The notes beneath the pieces were generated by a model. The model was given only the letters and a program-made list of their open reading frames with translations, made no database searches and had not been told where the DNA came from. From assembly GCA_942493095.1 (NCBI GenBank), contig OW818675.1:150001-182000 (forward strand): a DNA stretch of 32,000 bases, read 5' to 3'. Shown here piece by piece: positions 3,018 through 29,659 of this stretch. Made by a program: the position numbers and the translations under genes. The number at the start of each line of letters is the position of its first letter. Position 1 is the first letter of the stretch. This DNA comes from Candidatus Electronema halotolerans. GTDB taxonomy: Bacteria; Desulfobacterota; Desulfobulbia; Desulfobulbales; Desulfobulbaceae.

Positions 3018-3051
3018 AAATCAGTAACTACTCAGGCATCCGCCAAGCCTC

Positions 3052-4560: not shown

Positions 4561-4569
4561 AAAACGAGT

Positions 4570-4606: not shown

Positions 4607-4635
4607 GTCAGGCTGAGTAGTTACTACAAATCAAA

Positions 4636-4734
4636 GTTATCAAACGAAGATGCTATGGAATTTTCAATATTAAACACCTGAGACAACGAATTCTATTGGA
4701 TACTTTAGGGCCGACGCTCTTATTCACAGAATAA
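4636..4734 (+). pseudogene. ISL3 transposase fragment 3 of 3 (C-terminus)
   Basis: Reads VIKRRCYGIFNIKHLRQRILLDTLGPTLLFTE*, continuing ..NNKIK from 2818 in frame. The pieces 449 + 694 + 99 nt sum to 1242 nt, i.e. 413 codons plus stop, a normal ISL3 transposase length. Confidence 0.85.
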
Positions 4735-4774
4735 CGATTTTGTCAACCACAGAAAAACTCGGAGAGCCTAAATT

Positions 4775-6721: not shown

Positions 6722-6784
6722 GGGTTCCTCGAAAAATACAACATCCATTCTGCTGCATTTGTTTTGTTATTTTTTATTTTAATA

Positions 6785-6812
6785 TTGAAATTTCAGTCTA
6801 TTATGTTATAAT
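6785..6812 (+). promoter_or_regulatory. Candidate sigma70 promoter of the IS5 transposase
   Basis: TTGAAA (6785-6790), 16-nt spacer, TATAAT (6807-6812), about 40 nt upstream of ATG 6852. Confidence 0.5.
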
Positions 6813-6851
6813 TTCGGCATCAATTCAACTCATGCTGCCGGAGATGCACAG

Positions 6852-8063: not shown

Positions 8064-8086
8064 GAGATAACAGAAAAGAGTTGATT

Positions 8087-8866: not shown

Positions 8867-8890
8867 TATAAAAAATGACCTGAGAACTTT

Positions 8891-10096: not shown

Positions 10097-10101
10097 AGAA
10101 G

Positions 10102-12230: not shown

Positions 12231-12273
12231 ACTACAGCCTCAGCTTTTTTTCAGAACAATTGCTTGGGAAATT

Positions 12274-12966: not shown

Positions 12967-15215
12967 TCATCGACCGCAGCATCAAAAAATATCTCATTTT
13001 TGATGAGGAGCCGATTTATCGGGCCTTTGAGAAGATCAACGCCAATCACCTGCGGATTATTTTTGTCGTTGATCAATATGGTGTCTTGGAAGGTGTTGTT
13101 ACTGATGGTGATCTGCGCCGCTGGATTCTCAATCAAAGCAAAATAGATATTCAGCAGCCTGTGTCTGCTGCTGCCAACACGGATTTCACCCATTGCCGCG
13201 AGAATGAAGCACCGGAGAAGATCGCGGAGCGATTTTCCCGCAAAGTTGAATTTGTTCCTCTTGTTGATGAGCGAATGCGCCTGACTGCGGTTGCCAGTCA
13301 GCGTAAAGTTGATTTTGCCATAGGCAATCGGATAATATCTGATGATGCGCCTATTTTTGTCATTGCAGAAATAGGCAACAATCATAACGGCGATCTTGCC
13401 TTGGCCAAGGAGCTAGTTGAGCAGGCGGTCTGGGCTGGTGCTGACTGCGTCAAGTTTCAGATGCGGGACATGGACTCCTTGTATCGCAATGCCGGAGATG
13501 CTGACGATATTAGTGAAGACCTTGGTTCGCAGTATGTGATGGACCTGCTTTCCCGTTTTCAGCTGAAGCGGGACGAGTTGGCGGCAATGTTTGATTACTG
13601 CCGTGAACGCGGCGCGATTCCGCTCTGCACGCCTTGGGATGCGGAGAGTGTTGCGTTTCTTGAACAGTACGGAGTTGCTGCCTATAAAGTTGCGTCCGCT
13701 GATCTGACCAACCATGATCTGCTGCGGCAAATTGCTGCCACTGGCAAGCCCATGCTCTGTTCAACTGGCATGTCTTCAGAACAGGAAATCAAAGCAGCGG
13801 CCAATCTGCTTCTGCGCAAGGGGGCGCAAGTTATTCTGCTTCATTGCAATTCCGCCTATCCTGCCCCGTTCAAGGACATTAATCTCCGTTACATGCGGCG
13901 GCTCCAAGAAATAAGCACCTATCCGGTCGGCTATTCCGGGCATGAGCGCGGTTGTCATATTGCTTTGGCGGCAGTCGCGCTGGGAGCCAAAGTCATTGAA
14001 AAGCATTTCACTCTTGACCGTTCGTTAGAGGGCAATGATCACAAGATCAGCCTGCTGCCGGAAGAGTTCCGCAGCATGGTTGAGGGAATCCGAGAAGTTG
14101 AAGCGGCCTTGGGCAACGGCGGCGGACGCGCTTTGTCGCAAGGAGAGCTGATCAACCGGGAATGTCTCGCCAAAAGCATTGTCATCAATCAGCCTCTGAA
14201 AAAAGGGGAGATGATCACCGCCGCAATGCTGGAGGTCAAAAGTCCGGGCAAGGGCCTGCCGCCGTACAAGAAAGACAAACTGATTGGTCAGCCTGCGCGG
14301 CGGGATTTGTCGGCAGGTGATTTTTTCTATGAAGAAGATTTGTCAGATGCCGCTGCCGCACCCCGGCGGTATCATTTTGTTCATCCTTATGGGGTTCCGG
14401 TCCGCTATCACGACCTGCATCAGATTGCCGCTGCCTGTCCCTTGGACCTGCTCGAAATTCACTTGAGCTATAAGGATTTGGACCTTGATCCACATCGTTT
14501 TTTCACACAGCCGCTGCCGCATCGGCTGGTGGTTCACAGCCCGGAGTTGTTCAGCGGCGATCATATTCTTGATCTTTGCGCCGACGATGCCGCCTACCGG
14601 CAGCATTCCATAGCCGAGCTGGGCCGGGTGATCGCAGTGACACGGGAGCTGAAGCCGTATTTTTCTACCAGCGAGCGTCCGCTGATTGTGGTCAATGTCG
14701 GCGGCTTCAGTGCTGACCGTTTTATTGCTCCAGAAGAAAAAGAGGCGAAATATGCTTTGCTGCGCGACAGTCTGGCGCAGATTGATCAAACTGGAATTGA
14801 ACTGATTCCACAGACCATGCCGCCTTTTCCGTGGCATTTTGGCGGCCAGCGCTGTCATAATCTTTTTGTGACAGTGGACGAAATACTGGCATTTTGCCGG
14901 GAAAACGGGTATAGAGTATGTCTGGATGTGTCGCATTCCAAGCTGGCCTGCAATCATTGCCGGGAATCCTTTTTTCAATTTATTGAACAGGTTGCGCCAG
15001 TGACAGCCCATCTGCATATTGCAGATGCCCGCAGCGTGGATGGCGAGGGGCTGCAAATCGGCGAGGGTGAGATTGATTTCAAGATGCTGATGCGGAACTT
15101 GGCAGAGCTGATGCCGGATATTTCTTTTATTCCAGAAGTATGGCAGGGACATAAAAATAATGGGCAGGGATTCTGGACTGCGTTAGAGCGGCTGGAAGGC
15201 TCTTTTTTGAAATAA
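12963..15215 (+). CDS. Fusion protein: CBS pair + NeuB-type nonulosonic acid synthase + SAF domain + xylose-isomerase-like TIM barrel
   Basis: One uninterrupted 750-codon ORF. aa ~1-115 form a CBS pair (VLEGVVTDGDLRRWIL; FVPLVDERMRLTAV). aa ~125-395 are NeuB-like (FVIAEIGNNHNGDLALAKELV..AGADCVKFQ; GYSGHE; IEKHFTLDR). aa ~395-455 are SAF-like (KSIVINQPLKKGEMIT..LEVKSPGKGL). aa ~470-750 look like AP_endonuc_2/xylose isomerase (LVVHSPE.., VVNVGG, IELIPQTMPP, CLDVSH, HLHIADA). ATGA overlap with the cytidylyltransferase gene. Confidence 0.85.
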   Translation: MIIDRSIKKYLIFDEEPIYRAFEKINANHLRIIFVVDQYGVLEGVVTDGDLRRWILNQSKIDIQQPVSAAANTDFTHCRENEAPEKIAERFSRKVEFVPLVDERMRLTAVASQRKVDFAIGNRIISDDAPIFVIAEIGNNHNGDLALAKELVEQAVWAGADCVKFQMRDMDSLYRNAGDADDISEDLGSQYVMDLLSRFQLKRDELAAMFDYCRERGAIPLCTPWDAESVAFLEQYGVAAYKVASADLTNHDLLRQIAATGKPMLCSTGMSSEQEIKAAANLLLRKGAQVILLHCNSAYPAPFKDINLRYMRRLQEISTYPVGYSGHERGCHIALAAVALGAKVIEKHFTLDRSLEGNDHKISLLPEEFRSMVEGIREVEAALGNGGGRALSQGELINRECLAKSIVINQPLKKGEMITAAMLEVKSPGKGLPPYKKDKLIGQPARRDLSAGDFFYEEDLSDAAAAPRRYHFVHPYGVPVRYHDLHQIAAACPLDLLEIHLSYKDLDLDPHRFFTQPLPHRLVVHSPELFSGDHILDLCADDAAYRQHSIAELGRVIAVTRELKPYFSTSERPLIVVNVGGFSADRFIAPEEKEAKYALLRDSLAQIDQTGIELIPQTMPPFPWHFGGQRCHNLFVTVDEILAFCRENGYRVCLDVSHSKLACNHCRESFFQFIEQVAPVTAHLHIADARSVDGEGLQIGEGEIDFKMLMRNLAELMPDISFIPEVWQGHKNNGQGFWTALERLEGSFLK

Positions 15216-15222
15216 CAAGAAA

Positions 15223-16926
15223 ATGGAACAACAGAAATATATTCTTGGCTTAAATTATATCGGCCATGATGCGAGCGCATCCCTGCTGCGCAATGGCGAG
15301 GTGCTTGCCTCTGTCATGGAGGAGCGTTTCTCCAGACAGAAGCATGACCGCTCTTTTCCAATGCAGGCAATTCAATACTGTCTCAAACATGCTGGCATCA
15401 GTGTGAGCGATCTTGAAGCGGTCTGCTATTACATGGAGCCGGAAGAGCATTTCAATCAGCGGGTGATTCATCATCTGGGTCGATATTATCCGCGATCTGC
15501 ACCACTTTTTTCTGACATGCTCGCCCGTGCTCTGAAAGTGAACAATGTTGAACGGGAAATTCGGGAGCGGTTGAATTATCTTGGCAAAATTTATTATGCC
15601 GATCATCATAAATCGCATATAGCAAGTGCATTTTTTCTGTCTCCGTATCAGGAGGCAGCAGTCATTTCTATTGACGGACTGGGAGAAATCACTTCAACTG
15701 CTGTTGCGGATGTCTGTGGAACAGAAATCAAGATTCTGAAACGGATCAATTTTCCTCATTCCTTGGGAATGCTTTACAACGCAGTAACCCATTATCTCGG
15801 CTTCAATGCGGTCAGCGACGCTGGAAAAGTCATGGGCTTGACTTCCTATGGTGACCGCAGCGTCTATCTTGACGAGTTTCGCCAAACAGTCTGTCTGCTG
15901 GATGACGGTGGCTATGAGCTGGACCTTGATTATTTTGAATTTCCTTTTCAGCGTGACCTGTGGGTCAGCGACAAATTTATCAAACTCTTTGGGCCGAAAC
16001 GAGAAAAGAACGGACCGCTGGAAAAAAGGCATCAGGATATTGCGGCGGCTCTTCAAGCCTGGCTGGAGGAAGTGTATATTCATCTTGCCCGTTATGCCAA
16101 ACAGGCCACTGGGCGCGAGCATCTCTGCCTCTCCGGCGGGGTGACGCTCAACAGTGTTGCCAATGGCAAGCTGCTCCAAGAAGAATTGTTCACAGATATT
16201 TTTGTGCCCCCACCAACCGGCGATGACGGCACCTCAATCGGCAGCGCGCTGCTGTACAACTATGAGGTGCTGGGCAACAGGCAACGCTGTCCTCTGCAAA
16301 ACGGTTTTCTTGGCCCTGCCTACTCAGATGAAGAGATTGCAGCTGCCTTGCAACGCTTCAATCTTGCCTATTATAAATCTGCGGATGTCTGCAAGGAAGC
16401 AGCGGCCATGCTTGCAGAGGGCAAAATCGTTGGCTGGTTTCAAGGGCGGATGGAAGCGGGGCCAAGGGCACTCGGCAACCGGAGTATTTTAGCCAATCCT
16501 GCTCTTGAGCATATTAAGGACACACTGAATGCGCGAGTAAAATTTCGGGAACCTTTCCGGCCTTTTGCACCCAGCATTCTTGCCGAGGATGTCGGTGCAT
16601 GGTTTGAATACGACCATGAGGCCCCATACATGCTTTTTGTTTTTGACGTGAAAAAGGAGAAACGCAGTCGAGTTCCCGGCATAACCCATGTGGACGGCAG
16701 CGGTCGCCTGCAAAGCGTGGACCGCGAACGCAATCCCAAGTATCATCGGCTGATCAGCGAATTCAAAAAGCTGACTGGGATTCCGATGGTCATCAACACC
16801 TCGTTTAATATCAAAGGTGAGCCTATTGTCAACACGCCGGCAGATGCAATCCGCTGCTTTCTGGGTAATGGGATGGACTGTTTGGTGCTGGGTGATTTTC
16901 TTATTAAGAAGCAATCAGAATGCTGA
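15223..16926 (+). CDS. Carbamoyltransferase, NodU/CmcH family
   Basis: ILGLNYIGHDASASLLRNGEVLASVMEERFSRQKHD (N-domain), GGVTLNSVANG, and FREPFRPFAPS..ITHVDGSGRLQSV..VINTSFNIKGEPIV (C-domain) are hallmark motifs. Confidence 0.9.
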   Translation: MEQQKYILGLNYIGHDASASLLRNGEVLASVMEERFSRQKHDRSFPMQAIQYCLKHAGISVSDLEAVCYYMEPEEHFNQRVIHHLGRYYPRSAPLFSDMLARALKVNNVEREIRERLNYLGKIYYADHHKSHIASAFFLSPYQEAAVISIDGLGEITSTAVADVCGTEIKILKRINFPHSLGMLYNAVTHYLGFNAVSDAGKVMGLTSYGDRSVYLDEFRQTVCLLDDGGYELDLDYFEFPFQRDLWVSDKFIKLFGPKREKNGPLEKRHQDIAAALQAWLEEVYIHLARYAKQATGREHLCLSGGVTLNSVANGKLLQEELFTDIFVPPPTGDDGTSIGSALLYNYEVLGNRQRCPLQNGFLGPAYSDEEIAAALQRFNLAYYKSADVCKEAAAMLAEGKIVGWFQGRMEAGPRALGNRSILANPALEHIKDTLNARVKFREPFRPFAPSILAEDVGAWFEYDHEAPYMLFVFDVKKEKRSRVPGITHVDGSGRLQSVDRERNPKYHRLISEFKKLTGIPMVINTSFNIKGEPIVNTPADAIRCFLGNGMDCLVLGDFLIKKQSEC

Positions 16927-16954
16927 TTGTATTAGATTATGTTAATAATATATT

Positions 16955-17881
16955 ATGGATGATTTCGAAGGAAACAAAAAGAAATTTGAAGCAGACACTC
17001 GCCAACTTTTTCATAAACTTCACAGTGCTCAAGCAGATAGTGAATATATTTTTTACCGGCTGACTTCATTGCTTTCAACAGATTATCTAAAGGTCCCAGA
17101 AAATTTTTTTCAAGGCAAGATATGTTTAGATGCAGGTTGCGGTTCAAACGCAAATGCTGTCTATGCCATGCTTCAGATGCAAGCAGAAAAAGTCTATGCC
17201 TTTGATCTTGATGCCAGTATATATGAAACAGCACCGCAAATGTTGAAGGAATTTCCTGAAAGCCGCTATGACTTGCGTACTGGCAATGTTCTCAACATAT
17301 CTTTTACTGACAGTACCTTTGACTTTGTCCATTGCGGCGGTGTCCTGCATCATTCTGCTGATGTGCTGCAAGGTCTGCGGGAACTCGGCAGGGTGACTAA
17401 GCCTGGAGGCCTTCTCTATATTCACACCTACGGAGCAGGTGGACTTGTTCGTGAAATGACCTCTTTCTTTCGAGAAAAATATAATCATGATGAAGTCTTC
17501 AAAGGGCTGATCGACAATTTGACTGCGCAAAAATTGCAGCAGGGTCTCTTTGATATTTTTTTCGCTATGGATCGGTATGGAGACTCGTTTGGAACGAATA
17601 TTCCTGTCAATATTGTCAAAGAGCTTGTTGATGATGATTTGGTGCTCACTGTCCAAGATCGTATAGCTGCTCCAGCATATCATGAACATACTGAAGAGCA
17701 GTTACGGGCCTGTTTGGAAGAAGAAGGGTTCAGTCAAATAGAGCGGCTTGCTCGCTATCCGTATTTGAAAAATATACGACGTTTTCTGAGTCCTCTTTAT
17801 TATGAATACAGCTCTGAAATAGCTAAATTCTGTTACGGAAGTGGATTAATTCAGCTAAGAGCTGTAAAAAAAGCTGCTTAG
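16955..17881 (+). CDS. Class I SAM-dependent methyltransferase
   Basis: SAM-binding motif ICLDAGCGSNANA, then FDFVHCGGVLHH and VTKPGGLLYI. The substrate cannot be inferred. Confidence 0.8.
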   Translation: MDDFEGNKKKFEADTRQLFHKLHSAQADSEYIFYRLTSLLSTDYLKVPENFFQGKICLDAGCGSNANAVYAMLQMQAEKVYAFDLDASIYETAPQMLKEFPESRYDLRTGNVLNISFTDSTFDFVHCGGVLHHSADVLQGLRELGRVTKPGGLLYIHTYGAGGLVREMTSFFREKYNHDEVFKGLIDNLTAQKLQQGLFDIFFAMDRYGDSFGTNIPVNIVKELVDDDLVLTVQDRIAAPAYHEHTEEQLRACLEEEGFSQIERLARYPYLKNIRRFLSPLYYEYSSEIAKFCYGSGLIQLRAVKKAA

Positions 17882-17882
17882 A

Positions 17883-18629
17883 GTGAACAAGTCCTTGTAT
17901 TCAATCATCACTGTTTGCTTGAATAATGAACAGGGAATTGCAAGAACTTCTCAATCCATTCAAGCGCAAACATATAAAAATTTTGAATGGATTGTCATTG
18001 ATGGAAATTCTAAAGACAGCTCTGTTGCTGTTGCCAGACAGAATCCCTCGCTTACGCATCTGCTTTCTGAACCTGATGATAGCATTTATCATGCAATGAA
18101 CAAAGGAATTGCTTTAGCTCAAGGAAAATATTATCTTTTCCTCAATTCAGGAGATTGGTTATATACTGATACTGTTTTGGCAGAGGCTGCAACGCAATTG
18201 AAAGGAGATTTGGTTGCAGGCTGGTTGACGGTTATTTATCCTGACCGATTTAATAAAACGCCAAAACTCAGGCGGCTTGACCTTCAAGACGTGAGAAAGA
18301 AATTTCTCTATCACAGAACATTGCATCATCAAGCAACTTTCATCAAAAGTAACCTTTTTCAAAGGTATGGAGTATATGACCAAGGGTATAAAATATATGG
18401 TGATTGGGATTTCTTTTTAAGAGTAATTAACAAGGGAGCAAGTTTGGAGTTTGTAAAAATTTGCATTGCAAATTATACTTTTGACGGGATCAGTTCTACG
18501 CTGTTAGGAACAGAATTAAGCAGAAAAGAAATTAAAAAGATCAGGAAAAAGCATTTCTCTTTCTTCTACCGTTTAAAAAGATCAATTATTGATTCAATAG
18601 AAGCTATATTGAACAAAAGAGGTTTTTAA
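17883..18629 (+). CDS. Glycosyltransferase family 2 (paralog of 10102-10980)
   Basis: YSIITVCLNN..QTYKNFEWIVIDGNSKDSS..DDSIYHAMNKGI..GKYYLFLNSGD is the same motif order as the 10102 gene. GTG start 1 nt after the upstream stop. Confidence 0.85.
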   Translation: MNKSLYSIITVCLNNEQGIARTSQSIQAQTYKNFEWIVIDGNSKDSSVAVARQNPSLTHLLSEPDDSIYHAMNKGIALAQGKYYLFLNSGDWLYTDTVLAEAATQLKGDLVAGWLTVIYPDRFNKTPKLRRLDLQDVRKKFLYHRTLHHQATFIKSNLFQRYGVYDQGYKIYGDWDFFLRVINKGASLEFVKICIANYTFDGISSTLLGTELSRKEIKKIRKKHFSFFYRLKRSIIDSIEAILNKRGF

Positions 18630-18636
18630 TTTTACA

Positions 18637-19491
18637 GTGCCAAAGATTAGTGTCGTTATACCATGTTATAATCATGGCAAATATATTGATAGAGCTGTTG
18701 ACTCCATACTTGGTCAAACATTTGCCGATGTAGAAATTATAGTTGTCAATGATGGGTCAACAGATCAGTTTACTGTAAAAAAATTAAATAACTATAAAAA
18801 AGCAAAAACCAAAATTCTGCATACAGTCAATCAGGGGCCGTCAGCAGCTCGGAATATTGGGATAAGTCAGGCAAAAGGAGAATATATTCTTGTTTTAGAT
18901 GCAGATGATCATTATCATTCAACCTTTTTAGAGAAAGGAATTGCTATTTTTGAGCAAGACCATAAAATTGGCATAGTAGCCTGCGGCATTCAAAATTTTG
19001 GTCTTGACTCAGGAAAAAAAATGCCGAAGGGAGGGGATGTGCGTGCATTTCTGGCTCCTTCTGGACTCACGGGCAGTGCTTTGCTGCGTAAAGTGTGCTG
19101 GGAGCAAGCAGGAGGTTACGATGAAAGCATGAAGACATCAGGTTATGAAGATTGGAATTTTTGGATTGATGTGACAAAAAGAGGCTGGCTGGTTCATATC
19201 ATTGAAGAATATCTCTTCTATTATAATTGGCAGGATGATTCAAGAAGAACAATGCTGAACAGTCAACGTGCAGCATCGCTCAGTCATGTCGTCAGAAATC
19301 ATCGGGATGTATTTGGTCAATATGTTGATCTTGTTGTTTTGAATAAAGATAAAGAAGTGATGGCTATGAAAGGACAGCGTGATGCCTTGGCATCTTCTTT
19401 GGAATACAGGTTAGGCTGCCGTCTTCTTCAGTCGCTGCGGTTCTTTCAGAAATTTTTTGGCATGGATGCATCTGTACATGATAATGCTTGA
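18637..19491 (+). CDS. Glycosyltransferase family 2
   Basis: ISVVIPCYNHGKYIDRAVDSILGQTF.DVEIIVVNDGSTD..ARNIGI..GEYILVLDADD (GT-A, DxD); YEDWNFW. GTG start. Confidence 0.88.
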   Translation: MPKISVVIPCYNHGKYIDRAVDSILGQTFADVEIIVVNDGSTDQFTVKKLNNYKKAKTKILHTVNQGPSAARNIGISQAKGEYILVLDADDHYHSTFLEKGIAIFEQDHKIGIVACGIQNFGLDSGKKMPKGGDVRAFLAPSGLTGSALLRKVCWEQAGGYDESMKTSGYEDWNFWIDVTKRGWLVHIIEEYLFYYNWQDDSRRTMLNSQRAASLSHVVRNHRDVFGQYVDLVVLNKDKEVMAMKGQRDALASSLEYRLGCRLLQSLRFFQKFFGMDASVHDNA

Positions 19492-20662
19492 TTCAAAGCT
19501 ACAACGAAATCATTTCAAACCAAAAATTCTTTTTCTTCGTTCTTTTTCTCAAGTAACATTTGCCGCATTTATAGCTGGAGGTTTACATTACGCTCAGTTT
19601 GATTTCATGCAGTATCCTCCTCTTCCAGAGAACAGGCTGGGTAAGCTGGATAAGCTTTATGCTTCAACCGAAGCGAGGAATCATTTACAACGAAATGTCA
19701 TTACTGCAAGAAAAGAACTCAAAAAAAAGATAGAACAAGGTTTTTTTGATCTTATCCTCCTGCTTGATTACGATTCCAGCCTGTTTCGTTATACACAAAT
19801 GAGCTGGTTAAAAAAATTGAGGGACTTAGCGGGGCAAAGTAAATTTTTTTTCAGGAAAAAGTGGTCCGAGATTTTCAAAGAACTTGTTTGCATGCAGGGA
19901 GTGCCATTCATGCCTTCCGCACTTTCCTCCAACAGGACAGCACTTGCTGTAATTGATTTAGATGATTGGATATGCCTTCATAGTTCTGGACAAAAATTGC
20001 TGCAAGCCTGTTCCTCTTATTACAAACGAGAACTGCCCTATAACCGTTTTTTTCTGTACTATCAGCAGCGTCCTGCACCTTGGCGGCTTTGGCGTGAAAA
20101 GCTTGCTCCAATCTGCACAAAAGTTCACAATATCCCTTTGGGAATAGAGGATGAAAAATACTCTGCTCTGAAAAAATTGCGTAAAAATGAACAGGATATT
20201 GATATTTTTTACTGTGGACAATCAACCAGCACAATCAGAATAACCGCTTTGAAGAATTTGAAAGAATTTGCTGCAACAACATCTTGGAATATTGTTATCA
20301 AAGATGACCTGTCTTTTTCAGAATATTGTGCTGCTGTTGCCAGAAGCAAAATTACTCTTTCTATTTCTGGGGGCGGATGGGATTGTTTTCGGCATTATGA
20401 GGCTGTTGCCTTGGGTTCTGTCCCTTTGATGGATGCGCCTACAGTTGATGCCTTCTGGTGGAACCAAGCACCCACAGAACTGTTTTTCACCGGTACATTC
20501 AAAGATTTCCAGCTAAAAATAGATAAACTTTTATCCAATGCCTGCTTACGAAGTAAATGTTTCATTCAATTAGAAAATCTTATAGAGTCACGCATGCTGC
20601 ATTCTAAAATTGTAAAATATATAGTGCATTCATCTTTTAATAAAAAATATGTGGCTTGTTAG
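19466..20662 (+). CDS. Uncharacterised protein, probable glycosyltransferase-like (exostosin/CgeB-type C-terminal region)
   Basis: The C-terminal pattern IDIFYCGQST..R...L......Y......SKITLSISGGGWDCFRHYEAVALGSVPLMD resembles Glyco_trans_1_2/exostosin-type domains. The N-terminal ~230 aa were not recognised. The start is uncertain (TTG 19457; ATG 19466, 19478 or 19484) and overlaps the upstream gene end. Confidence 0.6.
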   Translation: MHLYMIMLDSKLQRNHFKPKILFLRSFSQVTFAAFIAGGLHYAQFDFMQYPPLPENRLGKLDKLYASTEARNHLQRNVITARKELKKKIEQGFFDLILLLDYDSSLFRYTQMSWLKKLRDLAGQSKFFFRKKWSEIFKELVCMQGVPFMPSALSSNRTALAVIDLDDWICLHSSGQKLLQACSSYYKRELPYNRFFLYYQQRPAPWRLWREKLAPICTKVHNIPLGIEDEKYSALKKLRKNEQDIDIFYCGQSTSTIRITALKNLKEFAATTSWNIVIKDDLSFSEYCAAVARSKITLSISGGGWDCFRHYEAVALGSVPLMDAPTVDAFWWNQAPTELFFTGTFKDFQLKIDKLLSNACLRSKCFIQLENLIESRMLHSKIVKYIVHSSFNKKYVAC

Positions 20663-20667
20663 TTTTC

Positions 20668-21672
20668 ATGTTTGGTTATTATCGATTTATCCTTGCTGTA
20701 TTTGTGTTAATGTCACATTTAGACTTTAGTCTTCAAGGATTTAACATCGGGGTTGCGTCAGTTATTTCTTTTTACATGTTGGCTGGTTATGTGGTTTGCA
20801 ATCTGCTGACGAATGTCTTCGTGATAGACAAAACAGTATATGTTCGATTCTACTGCGAACGAATTCTCAGAATATATCCTCAGTATCTTTTTATTGTTTT
20901 GCTAACAATAATATTTGTAATCATTTCAGGAAATATTCTTTATCAAAAAGACATTTATATTCTTTTAAAGAACATTTTAATAGTACCAGTTAATTATTAC
21001 ATGTTTAATGACGTGTCATTTTTTCCGGAAAACAGGTATAGTATTGTGCCAATATCTTGGTCGCTTGGTTTAGAACTGCAAGCGTATATTTTGCTGCCAT
21101 TTATAGTTTTCTACAAAAAAATAAGGGTAGTGAGCACTGTTCTCTCTTTTTTTATATTTATATTGGCATGTTTTGGCTGGCTGAATACAAATTATTACGG
21201 TTACAAGCTTTTGCCAGGTGTTTTATTTATATTTAATACAGGAGTAATTTTGGCCATCAAAACTTACTCTCCAGATAAGCTCTCTGTATTTGATAAATAC
21301 TTTCCACCAATTCTTTATGGATCAGCAATATTGCTCGCAATAACTTTAGGTATTTTCAACAGAGTTCATATCCCGCACTCAATTCAAGTGATTATTGGAA
21401 TTCTTATTTCGATACCAATTATCAGTTATCTTGATTCTTTTGATAAAAAAATTATTTTCAATCGATTTATGGGCAATCTTTCCTATGGCATATTCTTATC
21501 GCATTATCTTTCGATATGGATAGTTAAATTCACATTTGAGATTGACCCACATAGCACTCCTTATTTATTTGCATTTCTTGTTTTTATTCTGTCATTCTTT
21601 ATCGCTGCTGCTGGATCGGCTGGGGTGGAAAGAGTATTTATAAACTGGCGGTACAGTTTGGCAAAAAAATAA
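20668..21672 (+). CDS. Integral-membrane acyltransferase family 3 (sugar O-acyl/acetyltransferase)
   Basis: YRFILAVFVLMSHL near the N-terminus, SWSLGLELQAYILLPF, and roughly 9-10 hydrophobic segments. ATG 20668 is preferred over TTG 20656. Confidence 0.85.
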   Translation: MFGYYRFILAVFVLMSHLDFSLQGFNIGVASVISFYMLAGYVVCNLLTNVFVIDKTVYVRFYCERILRIYPQYLFIVLLTIIFVIISGNILYQKDIYILLKNILIVPVNYYMFNDVSFFPENRYSIVPISWSLGLELQAYILLPFIVFYKKIRVVSTVLSFFIFILACFGWLNTNYYGYKLLPGVLFIFNTGVILAIKTYSPDKLSVFDKYFPPILYGSAILLAITLGIFNRVHIPHSIQVIIGILISIPIISYLDSFDKKIIFNRFMGNLSYGIFLSHYLSIWIVKFTFEIDPHSTPYLFAFLVFILSFFIAAAGSAGVERVFINWRYSLAKK

Positions 21673-21712
21673 AAAGTGTATTTTTAACCCCGTGATCAAT
21701 TACGATGGAACC

Positions 21713-23071
21713 ATGAAGACCAAACCACTGCTGATCATACCTGTGGAAACCAAGGTACGGGAGTTTGATGCTAAACTTTTACTTGCTGTTGTTGCCCTTC
21801 AGCGCGGTTTTGATGTGGTGCTTGGCGCATTATGGGAGCTGAAATTTTTCACCGAGTTGCTTGACCGGGGAATTTTTTTAGACAAGAGCATTGCCAAGAC
21901 CAAGGTGAAATGGTTCAGCCGCTGTCGGCAGCAGGGCCATCGCGTTGCCGCCTTGGATGAGGAAGGTTTGGTCTATTTTGACGCTAAGACCTATCGTCAG
22001 CTTCGCATTTATTCTCCTTCCTTGGAAGCAGCAGATTTATTTTTTGCCTGGGGTAAAAATCAGGCCGAAGTAATGTCTCCAGTAATTGACACATTGATGA
22101 AACGAATACGGCTTGTCGGCAATTCAAGATTTGATCTGCTTCGACCGGAGTTGCGCAAAATTTACAACAAAAATGTTGACGGACTGCGTAAAAAATATGG
22201 CAGATTCATCTTGTTCAACACGAATTTTTCCTTTGCCAACAGTGCCAATAATGACGCATCGTTATTACGGGCTTTTTCTCAGTGTCCTATTGAGACAGAA
22301 CAGCCCGGCTTTTTTGCAGGCTGGACAGAAGCCCAGCACAAGGTCCTGCAATCTTTTCAGGAAGTTCTGCCCTTAGTGCGGGAACGCTTTCCAGAACACA
22401 CGATCATCATTCGTCCGCACCCTTCGGAAGATTTGCAGTTCTGGCACGATGCTGCGCTTTCCCTGAAGCAGACCGTCGTGATCCGAGAAGGCAATGTTGT
22501 GCCGTGGCTGCTGGCTGCTGATGTGCTGGTGCATTGGAACTGCACCACTGCCATTGAAGCTCTTCTGCTCGGCAAACCTGCGATTGCTTATCGCAAAGAG
22601 CAGCCTGATTTTTATGAGCAGCCTCTGCCCAACGCATGCAGTTTTCATGCCGCCAGTTCTGATGAATTGCTGGACATGCTCGACCAAGCCATTGCAGGCC
22701 GCCTCACCGCCTCTCCTGAACAACTTGCCGAGCAGGGCAAAATTCTGGCGCATCATATCTCCTCCTTGCAGGGCAGTCTGGCAGCGGAAAAAATGGTTGA
22801 GGAACTGCTTCAGCTCAGTCAGACCTTTCCTCGCCAACGAAACATCTCTCAGCGGACTGTTCAGGTGATGAAACGTCTATGGCGGGCAGTGCTGGACCAG
22901 CTCGACCGCAGCAGACAGATTCGGGATTCTTATGTTGCGGGAAAATTTCCTGATACCACAGCAGATGAGGTGCAGAAGCGGGTGCAAGTTTTGTCGGAAT
23001 GTTTGGGTTATTCTATGGATATTACGGTTCGGGAAAAATGCCGTAACTGTTTTTCTCTGTCTGCGACATAG
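21713..23071 (+). CDS. Uncharacterised surface-carbohydrate biosynthesis protein; candidate CMP-nonulosonic acid transferase
   Basis: Contains ALDEEGL (DEEG at 21956-21967) and IIIRPHPSE (HP at 22418-22423), which fit the D/E-D/E-G and HP motifs described for bacterial sialyltransferases of CAZy GT38/52/80. The C-terminus reads ..VLVHWNCTTAIEALLLGKPAIAY, like a GT-B nucleotide-binding half. ATG 21713 is preferred over GTG 21692. Confidence 0.55.
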   Translation: MKTKPLLIIPVETKVREFDAKLLLAVVALQRGFDVVLGALWELKFFTELLDRGIFLDKSIAKTKVKWFSRCRQQGHRVAALDEEGLVYFDAKTYRQLRIYSPSLEAADLFFAWGKNQAEVMSPVIDTLMKRIRLVGNSRFDLLRPELRKIYNKNVDGLRKKYGRFILFNTNFSFANSANNDASLLRAFSQCPIETEQPGFFAGWTEAQHKVLQSFQEVLPLVRERFPEHTIIIRPHPSEDLQFWHDAALSLKQTVVIREGNVVPWLLAADVLVHWNCTTAIEALLLGKPAIAYRKEQPDFYEQPLPNACSFHAASSDELLDMLDQAIAGRLTASPEQLAEQGKILAHHISSLQGSLAAEKMVEELLQLSQTFPRQRNISQRTVQVMKRLWRAVLDQLDRSRQIRDSYVAGKFPDTTADEVQKRVQVLSECLGYSMDITVREKCRNCFSLSAT

Positions 23072-23080
23072 CCTTCATTC

Positions 23081-24040
23081 ATGCCTGAGCCGCAAATTGT
23101 TTTTCTTACCTATCTGAATCGGTCAGGTTCCACCTATCTTGCCGACAAATTGAGCCGCTACAAAGCGATAAAAATGGGCATTGAGGCCCGTTTTGTTGAC
23201 GGGTGGATCAGGCCAGGCTTTTTTGTCCGCACTTCGGACGAGTTGCGCTTGTATCTTGACAGGCTGTATCAGGATGCAAAATTTCAGGCATGGCAAATCG
23301 ACCGGGATGTATTGGCCAAGCATCTGGCCGCGCTCACTCTGCCGCTCCGCTTCAGTGATGTGCTGCTGACCGCTTTCTCGCTGTACCAAGGCAGTGCTCC
23401 AGAAAAACACATTTTGGTGCATAAATGCGGTGAATATTACCGTTGTGTGGAAACCATCCGGCAAGAACTGCCAAGGGCAAAATTCATTTTTATCAACCGC
23501 GACCCCCGTGCGGTCTTCAGTTCGCAGAGACGCAGTTTTGACAGTCAAACTGGGCAGCCGATGCAGGAAAATGTGCTTCATTTTCTCTTTGGGTATCTTG
23601 ACACCCTGCGGCGGCTTGAGCAGTTGCGGAACGATCCTGATTTTCTGACGGTCCAGTACGAGGAACTGCTTGCAGATGAAGAAAAAGTGATGGCTGAGAT
23701 AGAACACTTTCTTGGATTGTCCAGCCCAGCAAAACAGACAGACATATCCGGCGGCAGTTATTTTTCTTCAATCCCCAGAGAACAGCAGCATCTTCACGCC
23801 CATCTGCAGGATGGTCGGCCTTGCGCGGACAGGATCACCGGCTGGCAGCGGGAGCTGCCGGTTTCACATATTCTGCTCCTCCAGACTGTGCTTAAACGCT
23901 ATTTGCTTGATAGAGATTTTCCCTTGCACAGACCTGCAAAAACAGGGCTGTCTGCATTCTCGCATTTTGTTTTTCTTCTTTGTTCGTATTGGTACGAATC
24001 CAGCAAGCGGAAGTTTTTTCATATCGAGCATAAATATTGA
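23081..24040 (+). CDS. Sulfotransferase (Sulfotransfer_3-like)
   Basis: 5'-phosphosulfate-binding loop FLTYLNRSGSTYL (RSGST 23120-23134) and 3'-phosphate motif FINRDPRAVFSS (23498-23524). Confidence 0.8.
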   Translation: MPEPQIVFLTYLNRSGSTYLADKLSRYKAIKMGIEARFVDGWIRPGFFVRTSDELRLYLDRLYQDAKFQAWQIDRDVLAKHLAALTLPLRFSDVLLTAFSLYQGSAPEKHILVHKCGEYYRCVETIRQELPRAKFIFINRDPRAVFSSQRRSFDSQTGQPMQENVLHFLFGYLDTLRRLEQLRNDPDFLTVQYEELLADEEKVMAEIEHFLGLSSPAKQTDISGGSYFSSIPREQQHLHAHLQDGRPCADRITGWQRELPVSHILLLQTVLKRYLLDRDFPLHRPAKTGLSAFSHFVFLLCSYWYESSKRKFFHIEHKY

Positions 24041-24046
24041 GAAATT

Positions 24047-24856
24047 GTGAGCAAGTTCAGAGAAAAATATTACGCGCTGACTGCTGTATTTCGTCCTCTG
24101 CCAAACTTTATCATCATTGGAGCGCAAAAAGCAGGAACAACATCGTTGTTTCATTACATTTGTCAGCATCCGCAAGTTTTTGCCAACAACAGCAAGGAAA
24201 TTCATTTCTTTGACCGGCATCACCAATTGGGCGCAAATTGGTACAGTTCTCATTTTCCTCTTGCAGGCCGATTGCAGCCAGGCCGCCGCAGCCGCATGGG
24301 CGAAGCAACACCCTATTATCTCTGTCATCCCCATGCGCCGGGCCGAATTGCCGCATTGCTGCCAAAGGTGAAACTGATTGCCGTTCTGCGGCATCCTGTT
24401 GAACGAGCCATTTCCCATTATTTTCACGAAAAGAAAAAAGGGCGGGAGCATCTTCCCATCTTGGAGGCAATGCAGCGGGAGGAGGAACGCTGCGCCGGAG
24501 AATGGCAAAGAATGCTTGAGGACGCATCATATTTCAGTCAAACTCATCAGTCATTTTCTTATAAACAGCGGGGAATCTATATCGAACAGTTGCAGCGATA
24601 CTGGAAGTTTTTTTCAAAAGAGCAGATTTTTATTGTGGAAAGCAGCCGGTTATTTTCCAAGCCGCAGGCTGTGCTTAAACAAGTATTTAATTTTTTAGAA
24701 ATTGATTCCAGCATAGTTATTCAAGATGTTGCCGTGAAAAACGCCAATCCGACCAAGAAGGCAGCGGAGCCTGAAGTTTATGCGTATCTGAAGCAATTTT
24801 TTGCGCCGCATAATGAGATGCTGCAAAACGCTCTTGGCCAAGATTTCGGCTGGTAA
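24047..24856 (+). CDS. Sulfotransferase (Sulfotransfer_1-like, carbohydrate sulfotransferase type)
   Basis: PNFIIIGAQKAGTTSL (KAGTTS 24128-24145) and IAVLRHPVERAISHY (24389-24415) are the PAPS-binding PSB and PB motifs. GTG start. Not a close paralog of the preceding sulfotransferase. Confidence 0.85.
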   Translation: MSKFREKYYALTAVFRPLPNFIIIGAQKAGTTSLFHYICQHPQVFANNSKEIHFFDRHHQLGANWYSSHFPLAGRLQPGRRSRMGEATPYYLCHPHAPGRIAALLPKVKLIAVLRHPVERAISHYFHEKKKGREHLPILEAMQREEERCAGEWQRMLEDASYFSQTHQSFSYKQRGIYIEQLQRYWKFFSKEQIFIVESSRLFSKPQAVLKQVFNFLEIDSSIVIQDVAVKNANPTKKAAEPEVYAYLKQFFAPHNEMLQNALGQDFGW

Positions 24857-24859
24857 AAT

Positions 24860-26095
24860 ATGCGGATTTGCATGCTGACATACTATTATTGGCCTGTTCC
24901 GGCTGGAGGTGCGGAGAACCAATGCCGACGACTTGCCAAGGCCTTAGCAGCGCGTGAGCATCAATGTTTGATTTTGACCTGCCGCTACAGCAGCGCAGCG
25001 GCCCAGAAGGAGGAGGAAAACGGGGTTGCGATTGTCAGAATATTTTCTTTGGAACTATTTCTTCAGTTTCTCCAATCGTTGAGAGATAAAAAAAAAGCGT
25101 CGCAGGGAAAAGAACAAAGCAACGGCAGCTCGACAGCGGCAGATGATCAAACTGTATTGCGACAAAAAATATCAAAAAAAATAAATTTTTGTATCAGATT
25201 CTGCAATATTACCGCATTCTCTTTTACCGCGTTGTTTTTTCTCTTCAGGAAGCATCGTTCTTTTGATATCCTGCATGTCCACACCGCCGACTGGATTGCC
25301 GGATTAGCCGCTTTTGCCGGAAAGATATTCAAGCTGCCTGTGATCTGCAAAGGAGCAGACATGCCAGTTTTTCCGCCCCTTCAAGCCGTGCCGCTGGCTG
25401 CCTGCTGTGATAGGTGGCGAAGGATGCCGCATTTCATCGCCCTCACGCCAGCCATGAAAGATGATCTTGTACAGAACCATGTTCCTGAAAACAAGATCAC
25501 GATCATTCCCAACGGAGTGTCCATTCCCGCCCAGACAGCTCCTGTTGAAAAAAACAGTCATTTTTTATATATTGGCAATTTCAGCCAGACCGCAGCCCAT
25601 AAAGCCTTTGATGTGCTGCTGGAGGCGTGGACAGCGTTTCATCATCATCGGCCAGCTCCACGGCTGCTGCTTTTAGGTGGTGGTGATGCGGAGCCGTGGC
25701 AGGCATTGGCGCGGCAGCTCGGCTGTGCCGACTCGGTGGATTTTTTGGGCTATCAAACCTCGTTGACACCTTTTTTCACGCAGAGCTGCTGCCTCCTTCT
25801 GCCTTCCCGCAAAGAGGGAATTGCGAATGCCCTGCTCGAAGCGCAGAGCTGGGGCATTCCGGCCATTGTCTCTGATATTCCTGGCAATCGGGCTGTAGTT
25901 GCGCATCAAAAAAACGGCCTGATTGTTCCTGTCGGCGACAGCAAAGCACTTGCGGAAGCCATGCTGCATCTGCATGACTCGCCAGAGCTGCGCAAGGAAT
26001 ACAGTGCAGCAGCCCGGAAACGGATGGAGGACGTTTTCGCCTTGGACAAGGTGGCTGACCAGACTGTCGTGCTGTATCAGCAGCTTGCAGGATAA
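24860..26095 (+). CDS. Glycosyltransferase, GT4 family
   Basis: MRICMLTYYYWPVPAGGAENQCRRLAKAL (N-terminus); LLLPSRKEGIANALLEAQSWGIPAIVSDIPGNRAVVAHQKNGLIVP (C-terminus). Carries a Lys/Ser-rich plus hydrophobic insert around aa 75-130. Confidence 0.88.
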   Translation: MRICMLTYYYWPVPAGGAENQCRRLAKALAAREHQCLILTCRYSSAAAQKEEENGVAIVRIFSLELFLQFLQSLRDKKKASQGKEQSNGSSTAADDQTVLRQKISKKINFCIRFCNITAFSFTALFFLFRKHRSFDILHVHTADWIAGLAAFAGKIFKLPVICKGADMPVFPPLQAVPLAACCDRWRRMPHFIALTPAMKDDLVQNHVPENKITIIPNGVSIPAQTAPVEKNSHFLYIGNFSQTAAHKAFDVLLEAWTAFHHHRPAPRLLLLGGGDAEPWQALARQLGCADSVDFLGYQTSLTPFFTQSCCLLLPSRKEGIANALLEAQSWGIPAIVSDIPGNRAVVAHQKNGLIVPVGDSKALAEAMLHLHDSPELRKEYSAAARKRMEDVFALDKVADQTVVLYQQLAG

Positions 26096-28089: not shown

Positions 28090-28271
28090 GTCGTTGGGGC
28101 GATCTGCGCTGTTTTTAAAGAATCCGCTTGCTTTTTTCACAGCTCTTCTTTAGACTGAGAGCATCCTTTTATAAGGATGGCGGACAGGAGGTTCCAAACG
28201 GCTTCTTTTTCTATGCAACTGCCGGATGTTTTTGTTGAAAATATTTTTTTGCCGGAGTGCAAATTTTTGTA

Positions 28272-28300
28272 TTGCCATTCCGCATGATGGATGCTATAGT
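28272..28300 (+). promoter_or_regulatory. Candidate sigma70 promoter P1 upstream of the repeat-protein gene
   Basis: TTGCCA (28272-28277), 17-nt spacer, TATAGT (28295-28300). Confidence 0.4.
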
Positions 28301-28371
28301 GAAGAGGACTTGAAGGAGAGACGGTTTGCTTGACTCTTTCTCCGCTGTTTTTGCGGCAGTGCAATTGTTTG

Positions 28372-28400
28372 TTGACAATAGCTGCGGAGACAGCTTTAAT
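28372..28400 (+). promoter_or_regulatory. Candidate sigma70 promoter P2 upstream of the repeat-protein gene
   Basis: TTGACA (28372-28377), 17-nt spacer, TTTAAT (28395-28400), about 65 nt upstream of ATG 28466. Confidence 0.45.
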
Positions 28401-28465
28401 CGTTCCAAGGCAGCTTGCATGAAGACTTTTGTTGCAACAAAAAAACAAATGAAAGGAGGCAGGTG

Positions 28466-29659
28466 ATGAAGAAGGACAAGGTGGCTCTCGGAGCAGCGGC
28501 TTTTGTGATACTGATCGGCGGTGTCGCTCAAGCGGGCAGCCTCGATTTTGGCGGCGGCCCGGATCAGGGAGATTATGCCTATGAATCCGTTGGTCAGCAG
28601 GCTCAGATCGGTCAGGATCAGATGCTGTCCGGCCAGGTTCCCGGTGTTCCGGTCAACGCCCGTCCGGGCGAGTGCTACTCCCGTTGTATTGCCCCGGCCA
28701 GGTACAAAACCGTGACTGAGAAAGTCTTGGTGCGTCCGGCCACTGAGAAGATTGTGACCATTCCAGGCAAATACAGATGGGTGGAGAAACGGGTTGTCGC
28801 AAAAGAGGCATCCGAGAGAATTGAGACCATTCCGCCGCGTTTTGAGGATCGCACCGTGCGGGTGATGGTCAAGCCGCCCTCTGAGCGGCTGCGGGTCATC
28901 CCGGCTCGGTATGATACCAGGCAGGAGCAGGTGGTGATCAAACCTGCCTCCACCAGAAGCGTGACCACTCCTCCGGTTTTCAAGACCGTGAAGCAGCGGA
29001 TTCTGGTCCAGGCCGCCTCCACCAAGTGGATCAGAACAGCAGTTCCTTGTACGGTTGATGATGTGAAGCTGGGCCTGACCGACTGCGAGACACTCTGCTT
29101 GATCGAGACCCCGGCCATGTACAAGACTGTGATCAAAAAAGTGCTGGTCAATCCGGCATCCCAGAGAACCGTCACTATTCCGGCTGAATTCGAGACCATC
29201 ACTAAAACTGTTGTGGTTGAGCCAGCCAAAGTTGTGAAGGAGAACATCCCAGCTCAGTACAAAACCATCACCAAGACCGTTATGGTTGAGCCGGCCAAAA
29301 CCAGAAGAATGCCGATCCCGCCTGAGTTCAAGACCATCCGGGTTAAGCAGGTGGTGCAGGAGCCTGGCGAGCGGCGCGTTCCGGTCCCGGCCAAGTACGA
29401 GACCGTCCGCAAGCGGGTTAAAGTCAGCGACAGCAAGATCGTTTGGCGGGCCGTTGTCTGCCAGGATCAGATTCAGGACACCAAAGTCATTCAGGTGCAA
29501 AGAGCACTGGCGCAGGAAGGCTTTGATCCTGGTCCGGTTGACGGCAACTACAGCGAGCAAACCCAGCAGGCTCTGCGGGCTTATCAGCGGAGCAAAGGTC
29601 TGCCCGAAGGCGGCGGCATGACCATTGAGACGCTTGAGTCCATGGGCATCTATGAGTAA
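28466..29659 (+). CDS. Secreted protein with ten ~23-residue tandem repeats and a C-terminal peptidoglycan-binding (PG_binding_1) domain
   Basis: The strong RBS AAAGGAGG sits 7-14 nt before ATG 28466. Signal peptide MKKDKVALGAAAFVILIGGVAQA. Repeats follow the pattern IPaxYxTVtxxVlVxPAxxxxvt (~28688-29450). The C-terminus VIQVQRALAQEGFDPGPVDGNYSEQTQQALRAYQRSKGL is a classic PG_binding_1 sequence. The track start 28415 is upstream of the RBS and unlikely. Confidence 0.88.
   Translation: MKKDKVALGAAAFVILIGGVAQAGSLDFGGGPDQGDYAYESVGQQAQIGQDQMLSGQVPGVPVNARPGECYSRCIAPARYKTVTEKVLVRPATEKIVTIPGKYRWVEKRVVAKEASERIETIPPRFEDRTVRVMVKPPSERLRVIPARYDTRQEQVVIKPASTRSVTTPPVFKTVKQRILVQAASTKWIRTAVPCTVDDVKLGLTDCETLCLIETPAMYKTVIKKVLVNPASQRTVTIPAEFETITKTVVVEPAKVVKENIPAQYKTITKTVMVEPAKTRRMPIPPEFKTIRVKQVVQEPGERRVPVPAKYETVRKRVKVSDSKIVWRAVVCQDQIQDTKVIQVQRALAQEGFDPGPVDGNYSEQTQQALRAYQRSKGLPEGGGMTIETLESMGIYE

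Follow-up and report, generated by a model that had tools for sequence, protein, structure and literature searches.

Which protein transfers the nonulosonic acid (NulO) that a surface-glycan gene cluster of the cable bacterium Candidatus Electronema halotolerans appears to activate with cytidine monophosphate (CMP)? The cluster lies in a window of 32,000 nucleotides (contig OW818675.1 of assembly GCA_942493095.1, positions 150,001 to 182,000 of the forward strand), and all coordinates below are those of this whole stretch. A preliminary description, made from the letters alone, had singled out one gene as that of a candidate novel NulO transferase on account of two short motifs of bacterial sialyltransferases. 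The encoded protein belongs to the NCBIfam family TIGR04396, its relatives lie beside NulO genes in several phyla, and it is probably a CMP-NulO transferase. The earlier proposal is thus partly supported, the function being likely and the novelty overstated. The gene is:

21713 to 23071, plus strand: TIGR04396-family protein of the glycosyltransferase (GT) B fold, probable CMP-NulO glycosyltransferase (open reading frame, hidden Markov models and AlphaFold2)

Family, fold and conserved motifs

The open reading frame (ORF) starts at the ATG at 21713, as its homologues do, and encodes 452 residues and a stop; the ORF listing begins it at a GTG (21692 to 23071, plus strand). Its coordinates and those of both motifs are exactly as first described. 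Against TIGR04396 ('surface carbohydrate biosynthesis protein') the protein scores 369.3 bits (E 3.1e-110, cutoff 125), and the alignment of residues 7-426 to model positions 1-425 of 427 makes it a full-length member. To our knowledge, TIGR04396 has no CAZy classification. A second model, NF046086 ('BFO_1060 family glycosyltransferase'), is matched by residues 8-354 (model 3-350 of 365) with 103.2 bits (E 1.5e-29). Its cutoff of 200 is not reached, and the protein is therefore a homologue from a sister family rather than a member of NF046086. Both models match all 74 aligned relatives, NF046086 at E ≤ 1e-3 throughout and at 1.7e-36 in the best case.

The family is large. A word-indexed search returned 1,094 matches, relatives are present in at least 590 species genomes, and an exhaustive search gave 9,009 cluster representatives (50% identity) at E ≤ 1e-3, of which 3,392 reach E ≤ 1e-30. 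Ca. Electronema, Ca. Electrothrix and other Desulfobulbaceae supply the closest relatives (60-87% identity). To call the protein uncharacterised and novel, as the preliminary description did, overstates the case for a member of a curated family of about 9,000 clusters that is also homologous to transferases of pseudaminic acid (Pse) and legionaminic acid (Leg) derivatives in Tannerella forsythia. The remark that it fits no standard GT2 or GT4 pattern was correct: a Pfam scan found neither domain, and the one match at E ≤ 10 is a sub-threshold hit to Capsule_synth (PF05159; 14.6 bits, E 0.024, residues 213-293, gathering cutoff 20), a domain weakly matched by 6 of the 74 relatives. Scanned at E ≤ 1, these relatives give scattered weak matches within the GT-B clan (DUF354, LpxB, Capsule_synth, Epimerase_2, Glyphos_transf). 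Searches of the Protein Data Bank (PDB) with the protein, the full profile and a C-domain profile gave nothing significant. Judged by sequence comparison, the protein is a TIGR04396 member and stands apart from GT38, GT52, GT80, PF05159 (GT107/118), Maf and Epimerase_2.

AlphaFold2, run on the 74-sequence alignment, predicts two Rossmann-like domains followed by about 100 conserved, helical residues at the C-terminus (predicted local distance difference test, pLDDT, 94.1; predicted template-modelling score, pTM, 0.92). Together with the Foldseek matches discussed below, the model confidently predicts a GT-B glycosyltransferase fold. There is no signal peptide, and the sole hydrophobic stretch lies within the Rossmann core; a reading as a membrane protein was dropped for want of any hydrophobic segment beyond that core.

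Five conserved segments matter for what follows:

21746 to 21775, plus strand: E12-T-K-V-R16-E17-F-D-A-K21, charged residues after the N-domain strand 6-11
21956 to 21967, plus strand: D82-E83-E84-G85, putative counterpart of the D/E-D/E-G motif, directly after the N-domain strand 77-81
22118 to 22135, plus strand: G136-N-S-R139-F-D141, N-domain loop (G136, R139 and D141 each in 263 of 263 homologues)
22412 to 22429, plus strand: R234-P-H236-P237-S-E239, the (K/R)xHP(xE) motif that follows strand 230-234, the first of the C-domain
22541 to 22558, plus strand: C277-T-T-A-I-E282, start of a C-domain helix

The D-E-E-G codons (21956-21967) thus specify residues 82-85, and the H-P codons (22418-22423) fall inside the R-P-H-P-S-E segment of residues 234-239.

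The caution of the preliminary description, that short motifs can occur by chance, was justified. In a set of 618 unrelated ORFs of 350-600 residues from related loci, [DE][DE]G followed by HP occurred in 10%, and 20,000 shuffles of the protein itself yielded it in 4%. An ordinary GT2 enzyme of the GT-A fold in the same window (10084-10980, plus strand) carries DDG at residue 78 and KRHP at residue 273, a chance motif pair. Given these rates and the GT2 example, the bare pair proves nothing alone. A stricter pattern, in which [DE][DE]G is followed after 100-200 residues by [KR]xHP, was found in 0.8% of the unrelated ORFs and 0.2% of the shuffles.

Conservation across the family lifts the motif observation above chance. 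It was examined in the 74 homologues, which are 33-79% identical, and in a wider set of 263 sequences. Among the 74, E83, E84, R234, P237 and E239 are invariant and H236 is present in 73. The counts in the wider set are:

D82: Asp in 188 and Cys in 71 of 263
E83: 261 of 263
E84: 261 of 263, with Asp in two
G85: Gly in 202, Ala in 44 and Ser in 16 of 263
R234: 263 of 263
P235: 260 of 263
H236: 257 of 263
P237: 261 of 263
E239: 261 of 263

The EE and HP residues are thus near-invariant (each in at least 257 of 263). For the first motif, the Glu pair stood the comparison, whereas the D82 and G85 positions on either side of it are variable. The other segments are conserved to a similar degree: E12 in 257, R16 in 263, E17 in 260 and K21 in 257 sequences; C277 in 262, T278 in 251, T279 in 257 and E282 in 260. 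Invariant positions outside the motifs occur in both Rossmann domains (R16, W113, G136, R139, D141, W265, C277, E282), and some 20 positions besides the motif residues are near-invariant in the 263 sequences, down to 26-33% identity. As read from the alignment, near-invariant residues lining both Rossmann domains look like the conservation pattern of an active site. The distant member from Azospirillum thermophilum, only 26% identical, keeps FLVRPHPFE, GTPRTD (at the G136-D141 loop) and SSTAIE and has Q-S-E-G in place of DEEG, from which it follows that the conserved motif cores are E84(-G) and R-x-H-P-x-E.

Both motifs resemble sequences in enzymes of known function. Freiberger et al. defined D/E-D/E-G and HP in the sialyltransferase families GT38, GT52 and GT80 (PMC2169525). 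The N. meningitidis polysialyltransferase NmB-polyST loses all activity through E153A or G154A, has a higher Km for CMP-N-acetylneuraminic acid (CMP-Neu5Ac) with H278A or P279A and is inactive with the latter two combined, while His311 of P. multocida PmST1 hydrogen-bonds the CMP phosphate (PMC2169525). The local polyST sequences, translated from the mutagenic primers of that study (PMC2169525), are TTHLIDEGTGTY and IKGKIFIKLHPKEMGNN, to be set beside VAALDEEGLVY and HTIIIRPHPSE here. THLIDEG and IFIKLHPKE of NmB-polyST correspond to ALDEEG and IIIRPHPSE, the second motif sharing the pattern φφφ-(K/R)-x-H-P-x-E. A hydrophobic run precedes each motif in both proteins; in the TIGR04396 protein these runs are the predicted strands 77-81 and 230-234, and the spacing is 153 residues here and 125 in NmB-polyST (from residue numbering). 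The GT38, GT52 and GT80 enzymes resemble it further in their GT-B fold, in an N-domain acidic pair on a loop after a strand and in a (K/R)xHPxE that follows the first C-domain strand. They differ in giving no Pfam or PDB sequence match, in being absent among the best 50 fold matches, in lacking the conserved C-terminal helical extension of about 100 residues, and in the motif Gly, which varies in TIGR04396.

The (K/R)xHP motif is common to the sialyltransferases of GT29, 38, 42, 52 and 80 and the retaining Kdo (3-deoxy-D-manno-octulosonate) transferases of GT99 and GT107 (PMC12887879, 2026). Its basic residue bonds cytosine O2/N3 and its Pro packs on the ring (PMC12887879). Since the RxHPxE segment fits this definition, the second motif is the full CMP-binding signature, more than the 'HP' first noticed. 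KpsC/KpsS (GT107), WbbB (GT99), the Pse transferase KpsS1 (GT118) and KrkA (GT140) share it too (PMC12887879); enzymes of these four families use an Asp nucleophile in a retaining, double-displacement mechanism. Likeness to the KpsC/KpsS type, whose Capsule_synth domain is hit across the RxHP region, is not significant (14.6 bits where the cutoff is 20; Foldseek E 0.04-0.06). The RxHP segment of the profile aligns non-significantly (E ~0.9) with residues 247-269 of PDB entry 5FA0, which we take to be WbbB.

Genetically studied relatives and linkage to NulO genes

Homologues with an assigned role are found in T. forsythia, where Tanf_01245, TFUB4_00887 and BFO_1060 are transferases of Pse or Leg derivatives (PMC5420450). 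Deletion of Tanf_01245 or TFUB4_00887 removes the terminal Pse/Leg derivative from the O-glycan, and CMP-Pse5Am7Gra or the CMP-Leg derivative persists; ΔpseC and ΔlegC mutants are without those CMP-sugars (PMC5420450). These proteins, of about 445 residues, are homologous to the Electronema protein over the whole GT-B region and likewise lie beside CMP-NulO biosynthesis genes. They differ in that their donors are Pse5Am7Gra or a Leg derivative and that the Electronema protein, below the NF046086 cutoff, belongs to the sister family. The 2017 study pointed out both motifs and noted a TagB-like domain (PMC5420450); by its description both motifs lie in the C-terminal half, whereas the Glu pair considered here is in the N-domain. 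The idea of NulO transfer by proteins with these two motifs is therefore already published for the sister family (PMC5420450). For TIGR04396, under its accession or family name, literature searches turned up a single Herbaspirillum genome paper, in which a TIGR04396 gene beside neuABC was guessed to act in Neu5Ac transfer (PMC6679464). Maf (motility-associated factor) proteins, flagellin NulO transferases, share the chemistry proposed here, transfer from CMP-Pse, CMP-Leg or CMP-Neu5Ac, and act on flagellin; the protein has no Maf match in Pfam at E ≤ 10 or in NCBIfam, and no flagellar genes were seen in the window cluster.

In the window, two genes of the same cluster point to a CMP-activated sugar:

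12274 to 12966, plus strand: CMP-NulO synthetase-like gene (NeuA/PseF-like), the presumed donor supplier (Pfam CTP_transf_3, E 1.4e-26)
12963 to 15215, plus strand: NulO synthase, a 750-residue fusion of a CBS pair, NeuB, SAF and a xylose-isomerase-like TIM barrel (Pfam NeuB, E 1e-87, with CBS, SAF and AP_endonuc_2)

The association with such genes extends through the family. It was counted for the 45 loci whose flanks reach at least 9 kb in each direction, taking neighbours within 10 kb. NeuB-like genes occur in 36 of them and NeuA-like genes in 39; both kinds are present in 35, and at least one in 40. These neighbours are often co-oriented and within 100 bp of the family member. NeuB homologues are scarce, numbering no more than a few in several Mb of a genome, so a random 21-kb stretch would be expected to include one in about 1% of cases. 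Some apparent exceptions are artefacts of the flank limit: cable-bacterium loci have the synthase 6.4-7.5 kb and the NeuA-like gene 8.7 kb upstream of the family member. The functional proposal has withstood the three refutations that the preliminary description named, since the fold is that of a glycosyltransferase, the EE and HP residues are kept among homologues and the homologues are linked to neuB/neuA-like genes.

A core of three genes, NeuA-like, the 750-residue NeuB fusion and the family member, recurs across phyla (Desulfobulbus, locus L007; Kiritimatiellia, L008 and L010; Desulfopila, L012). There the NeuA-like gene and the fusion are the only conserved neighbours, and other GTs vary. 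The fusion (743-769 residues) adjoins TIGR04396 genes in L007, L008, L010, L012 and L020, from several phyla, in loci without a NeuC-like gene. Elsewhere, 18 of 50 full-length loci have a genuine Epimerase_2/NeuC gene in addition to NeuB, NeuA and the family member. Two examples are L081 and the Thermincola locus L082, with the order neuB-neuC-methyltransferase-neuA, followed further on by an ABC exporter and the family member. A plasmid operon of A. thermophilum holds a family member together with LegB, LegC, neuC, an acetyltransferase, a nucleotidyltransferase, a cytidylyltransferase, neuB and an amidotransferase/HisH/HisF-like set.

Copy number and clade follow the NulO pathways as well. 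Two to four family copies occur in 17 of 84 loci (four in L062), and L037, L054 and L081 each hold two NeuB, two NeuA and two family genes. In a neighbour-joining tree of 101 family copies, the clades track NeuB synthase architecture: one clade goes with a ~350-residue NeuB and NeuC, the clade of the window with the 750-residue fusion without NeuC, and a third clade lies directly beside a ~300-residue NeuB and a ~400-residue NeuA-phosphatase fusion. Loci with two NulO pathways carry one family copy from each matching clade. Six single-pathway loci (L025, L034, L038, L051, L065, L077) have tandem pairs from two sister clades, and a pair of enzymes for one donor is more easily explained by two linkages or two acceptors than by a pathway step.

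Two features of these neighbourhoods deserve separate mention. The module of a ~300-residue NeuB without SAF and a ~400-residue cytidylyltransferase adjoins the family member in L014, L024, L078, L079, L054, L006 and L074, and the equivalent 398-residue gene of L081 fuses HAD-phosphatase domains (Hydrolase_3) to CTP_transf_3, which suggests a NulO-9-phosphate route of the Kdn or Neu5Ac-9-P kind. A fused ATP-binding cassette (ABC) exporter with transmembrane and nucleotide-binding domains (ABC_membrane and ABC_tran, ~560-600 residues) lies near the family member in 23 of the 50 full loci, including L081, L082, L083 and L084, and hints at ABC-dependent export of the NulO glycan; the window has none.

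Proposed function and competing explanations

We propose that a soluble, cytoplasmic GT-B enzyme transfers the CMP-activated nonulosonic sugar of the locus, made by the NeuB fusion and the NeuA-like enzyme, to a growing surface glycan. CMP-NulO would sit on the C-domain. By analogy with known CMP-dependent enzymes, the R234-E239 segment may bind CMP, with R234 and P237 at the cytosine and H236 at the phosphate. GT-B enzymes usually have a contact to the nucleotide ribose at a C-domain helix start like that of C277-E282, and E282 may play this part here. The acceptor, perhaps a lipid-linked oligosaccharide or a protein-linked glycan, would lie on the N-domain, whose presumably cleft-facing loops carry E12/R16/E17/K21, E83/E84, W113 and R139/D141; the first of these groups may bind the acceptor or the sugar carboxylate. 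Following GT38 and GT80, E84 (or E83) could be the base that activates the acceptor hydroxyl in an inverting displacement, with H236 stabilising the leaving CMP. Alternatively, a retaining double displacement as in GT99/107/118/140 would make D141 or a Glu the nucleophile. On conservation, D141, E83 and E84 are all candidates for the nucleophile or base, D141 as the alternative catalytic residue.

Several observations weigh against a CMP-NulO transferase. At threshold, the Pfam and PDB sequence models of known NulO, Kdo and sialyltransferase families are unmatched. The nearest solved structures are 2-epimerases (template-modelling score, TM, ~0.5) and not sialyl- or Kdo-transferases, and a C-domain model found no Foldseek match at E ≤ 1e-3. 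The motif Gly, essential in NmB-polyST, is Ala or Ser in 23% of the family. Five of the 45 full loci have no NulO gene within 10 kb. The evidence for the transferase role of the T. forsythia relatives is entirely genetic. In the window, no NeuC-, PseB/C- or LegB/C-type gene was found among the genes scanned, and the NeuA-like and NeuB-like genes fall below equivalog cutoffs: the best NCBIfam match of the NeuA-like gene is PseF (150.8 bits, cutoff 205.7), and the fusion reaches 331 bits against NeuB_NnaB (cutoff 399.65) and stays below the NeuB and PseI equivalog cutoffs. From the missing precursor genes it follows that the donor would be some NeuB-derived ulosonic acid. The earlier statement that the locus makes a CMP-activated NulO is probable.

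The protein might instead be a GT-B transferase with another donor, such as a cytidine diphosphate (CDP)-polyol phosphate, as in TagB/TagF-like enzymes, or a UDP or GDP sugar, the NulO being added by a different enzyme. Weak Pfam matches in relatives (Glyphos_transf 3/74, LpxB 10/74, DUF354 15/74, GT4 3/74), TagF, TarL and GT4 structures among the C-domain fold matches and the TagB-like domain noted in T. forsythia (PMC5420450) are compatible with this, and the seven further GT candidates of the window imply a glycan that needs several transferases. We nevertheless consider it unlikely. The NeuA-like and NeuB-like genes are the only pair that travels with the family across phyla while other GTs vary, the copies and clades of the family go with how many NulO pathways there are and of which type, no gene for making CDP-glycerol or CDP-ribitol was noticed among those of the window, and its other GTs all lack a CMP-type motif in a GT-B setting.

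A second alternative places the protein within the NulO pathway, as a hydrolysing 2-epimerase like NeuC/LegG or a hydrolase like PseG that feeds a hexose to the NeuB fusion. Foldseek, run with the whole model against the PDB, gave 216 matches at E ≤ 1e-3, and the best 50 are almost all UDP-N-acetylglucosamine (UDP-GlcNAc) 2-epimerases, with LpxB and HepE besides; the top match, 1f6d, has E 2e-9 and a TM of 0.50 of the query. The preliminary description had looked to sialyltransferases and KpsC/KpsS as structural neighbours, and the search singled out neither, its best solved matches being epimerases that are also GT-B proteins. A model of the C-domain alone (pLDDT 93.2) gave a mixed listing of GT4 enzymes, epimerases, KpsC, TagF/TarL and NeuC, with KpsC highest in identity (24-26%). 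With epimerases at the top and a mixed C-domain list, the fold cannot decide function, and it is context, rather than fold, that speaks against the biosynthetic alternative.

That alternative is made more serious by the window and its whole clade, which have no NeuC-like gene and so seem to miss the step, and it would lead one to expect the neuB/neuA co-occurrence and the tracking of synthase type by clade equally. We still regard it as quite unlikely. The 2-epimerases (WecB, MnaA, NeuC) share the GT-B architecture (E 2e-9, TM 0.45-0.50 of the query) but are only 12-16% identical, with a root-mean-square deviation of 6-8 Å, and have H-R-R-E where this protein has an RxHPxE of the CMP type. Epimerase_2 (PF02350) does not match the protein at E ≤ 10 and marginally matches 5 of 74 relatives (best E 3e-4), against 74 of 74 for NF046086 at E ≤ 1e-3. 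A true Epimerase_2 gene already stands beside the family member in the 18 of 50 loci noted above; the A. thermophilum operon accounts for every Leg step and yet holds a family member, which argues against a biosynthetic role; the six single-pathway loci carry tandem pairs from two sister clades; and the T. forsythia homologues are not needed for CMP-NulO synthesis.

That the motifs are coincidental in a structural or regulatory GT-B-like protein without sugar-nucleotide-dependent activity deserves hardly any credence, for the bare pair does arise by chance in 4-10% of similar-size proteins and in the GT2 of the window, but its residues and some 20 other positions are near-invariant in 263 sequences down to 26-33% identity.

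A wider reading, which we offer tentatively and with considerable doubt, would make all of TIGR04396 (about 9,000 clusters) CMP-NulO transferases. The clade of the window would then serve an undescribed ulosonic acid, made by the CBS-NeuB-SAF-TIM-barrel fusion without a NeuC-, PseB- or LegB-type precursor pathway and added to an envelope glycan that is conserved in cable bacteria and bears sulfate, carbamoyl, methyl and acyl groups. The fused TIM-barrel domain may supply the precursor.

Transferases of bacterial NulOs (Pse, Leg and relatives) are described as far less known than the biosynthesis pathways in the account of the T. forsythia enzymes (PMC5420450). To the published idea the present analysis adds the family-wide conservation of EE and RxHPxE, a quantified linkage to NulO genes, the tracking of synthase type by transferase clade, the redundancy argument against a biosynthetic role and, in the cable-bacterium lineage, an unusual partner synthase and decoration genes. 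Should TIGR04396 consist of NulO transferases, a function would be gained for about 9,000 clusters in at least 590 species genomes, and NCBI could replace the name 'surface carbohydrate biosynthesis protein' by a more exact one. Biochemical proof could be sought in cultured organisms with a family member, namely A. thermophilum, Desulfopila sp. IMCC35008, Desulfogranum marinum DSM 2058 and Nitrosomonas sp. Nm34.

The cable-bacterium gene cluster and its surroundings

The cluster as a whole, delimited from Pfam/NCBIfam gene annotation and synteny, is:

8081 to 26095, plus strand: surface-glycan gene cluster holding the TIGR04396 gene

Its genes run in the order methyltransferase, GT4, GT2, GT4, NeuA-like, NeuB fusion, carbamoyltransferase, methyltransferase, GT2, GT2, RXYLT1_C-like protein, acyltransferase_3, the TIGR04396 protein, two sulfotransferases and GT4; in the window a bifunctional aldolase/short-chain dehydrogenase (SDR) comes next. 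From the NeuB fusion onward the gene order is matched one for one in Ca. Electronema sp. KV (L001; 70-90% identity), and it is largely kept in Ca. Electrothrix laxa and E. gigas (partial synteny). The part from 15223 to 26095 (plus strand) is kept in the cable-bacterium loci L001, L002, L004 and L005.

Decoration enzymes are prominent in it: the carbamoyltransferase, the methyltransferase, acyltransferase_3 and the adjacent sulfotransferases (23081-24040 and 24047-24856), which together suggest that the envelope glycan is acidic, sulfated and carbamoylated. In a Rhodospirillaceae locus, L084, the family member likewise has a Sulfotransfer_3 gene nearby. A literature search found no report of NulO sugars or of a decorated acidic envelope glycan in cable bacteria. 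For these organisms the finding suggests that an acidic envelope glycan with many decorations is conserved.

The RXYLT1_C-like gene (19457-20662, plus strand) encodes a 401-residue protein with a weak RXYLT1_C match (E 2e-7, residues 283-326), no NCBIfam match and neither an HP nor a [DE][DE]G motif. It is kept beside the GT2 genes of the cluster in cable-bacterium loci (50-70% identity) and gives the locus a second candidate that is glycosyltransferase-like and unclassified.

Further along the window, two long ORFs overlap on opposite strands, at 28211-29560 (minus) and 28415-29659 (plus). A domain (PG_binding_1) and an L001 homologue were found for the latter alone, and the minus-strand ORF is therefore probably spurious. 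Directly upstream of the cluster, a run of transposase ORFs occupies 553-7865 on the plus strand:

553 to 1470, plus strand: IS30-like transposase
1549 to 2175 and 2135 to 2851, plus strand: ISL3 transposase split in two ORFs
3052 to 4560, 4807 to 6177 and 6208 to 6855 (fragment), plus strand: three IS66-family ORFs
6852 to 7865, plus strand: IS4/IS5-like DDE transposase

The upstream end of the glycan cluster may thus have been rearranged.

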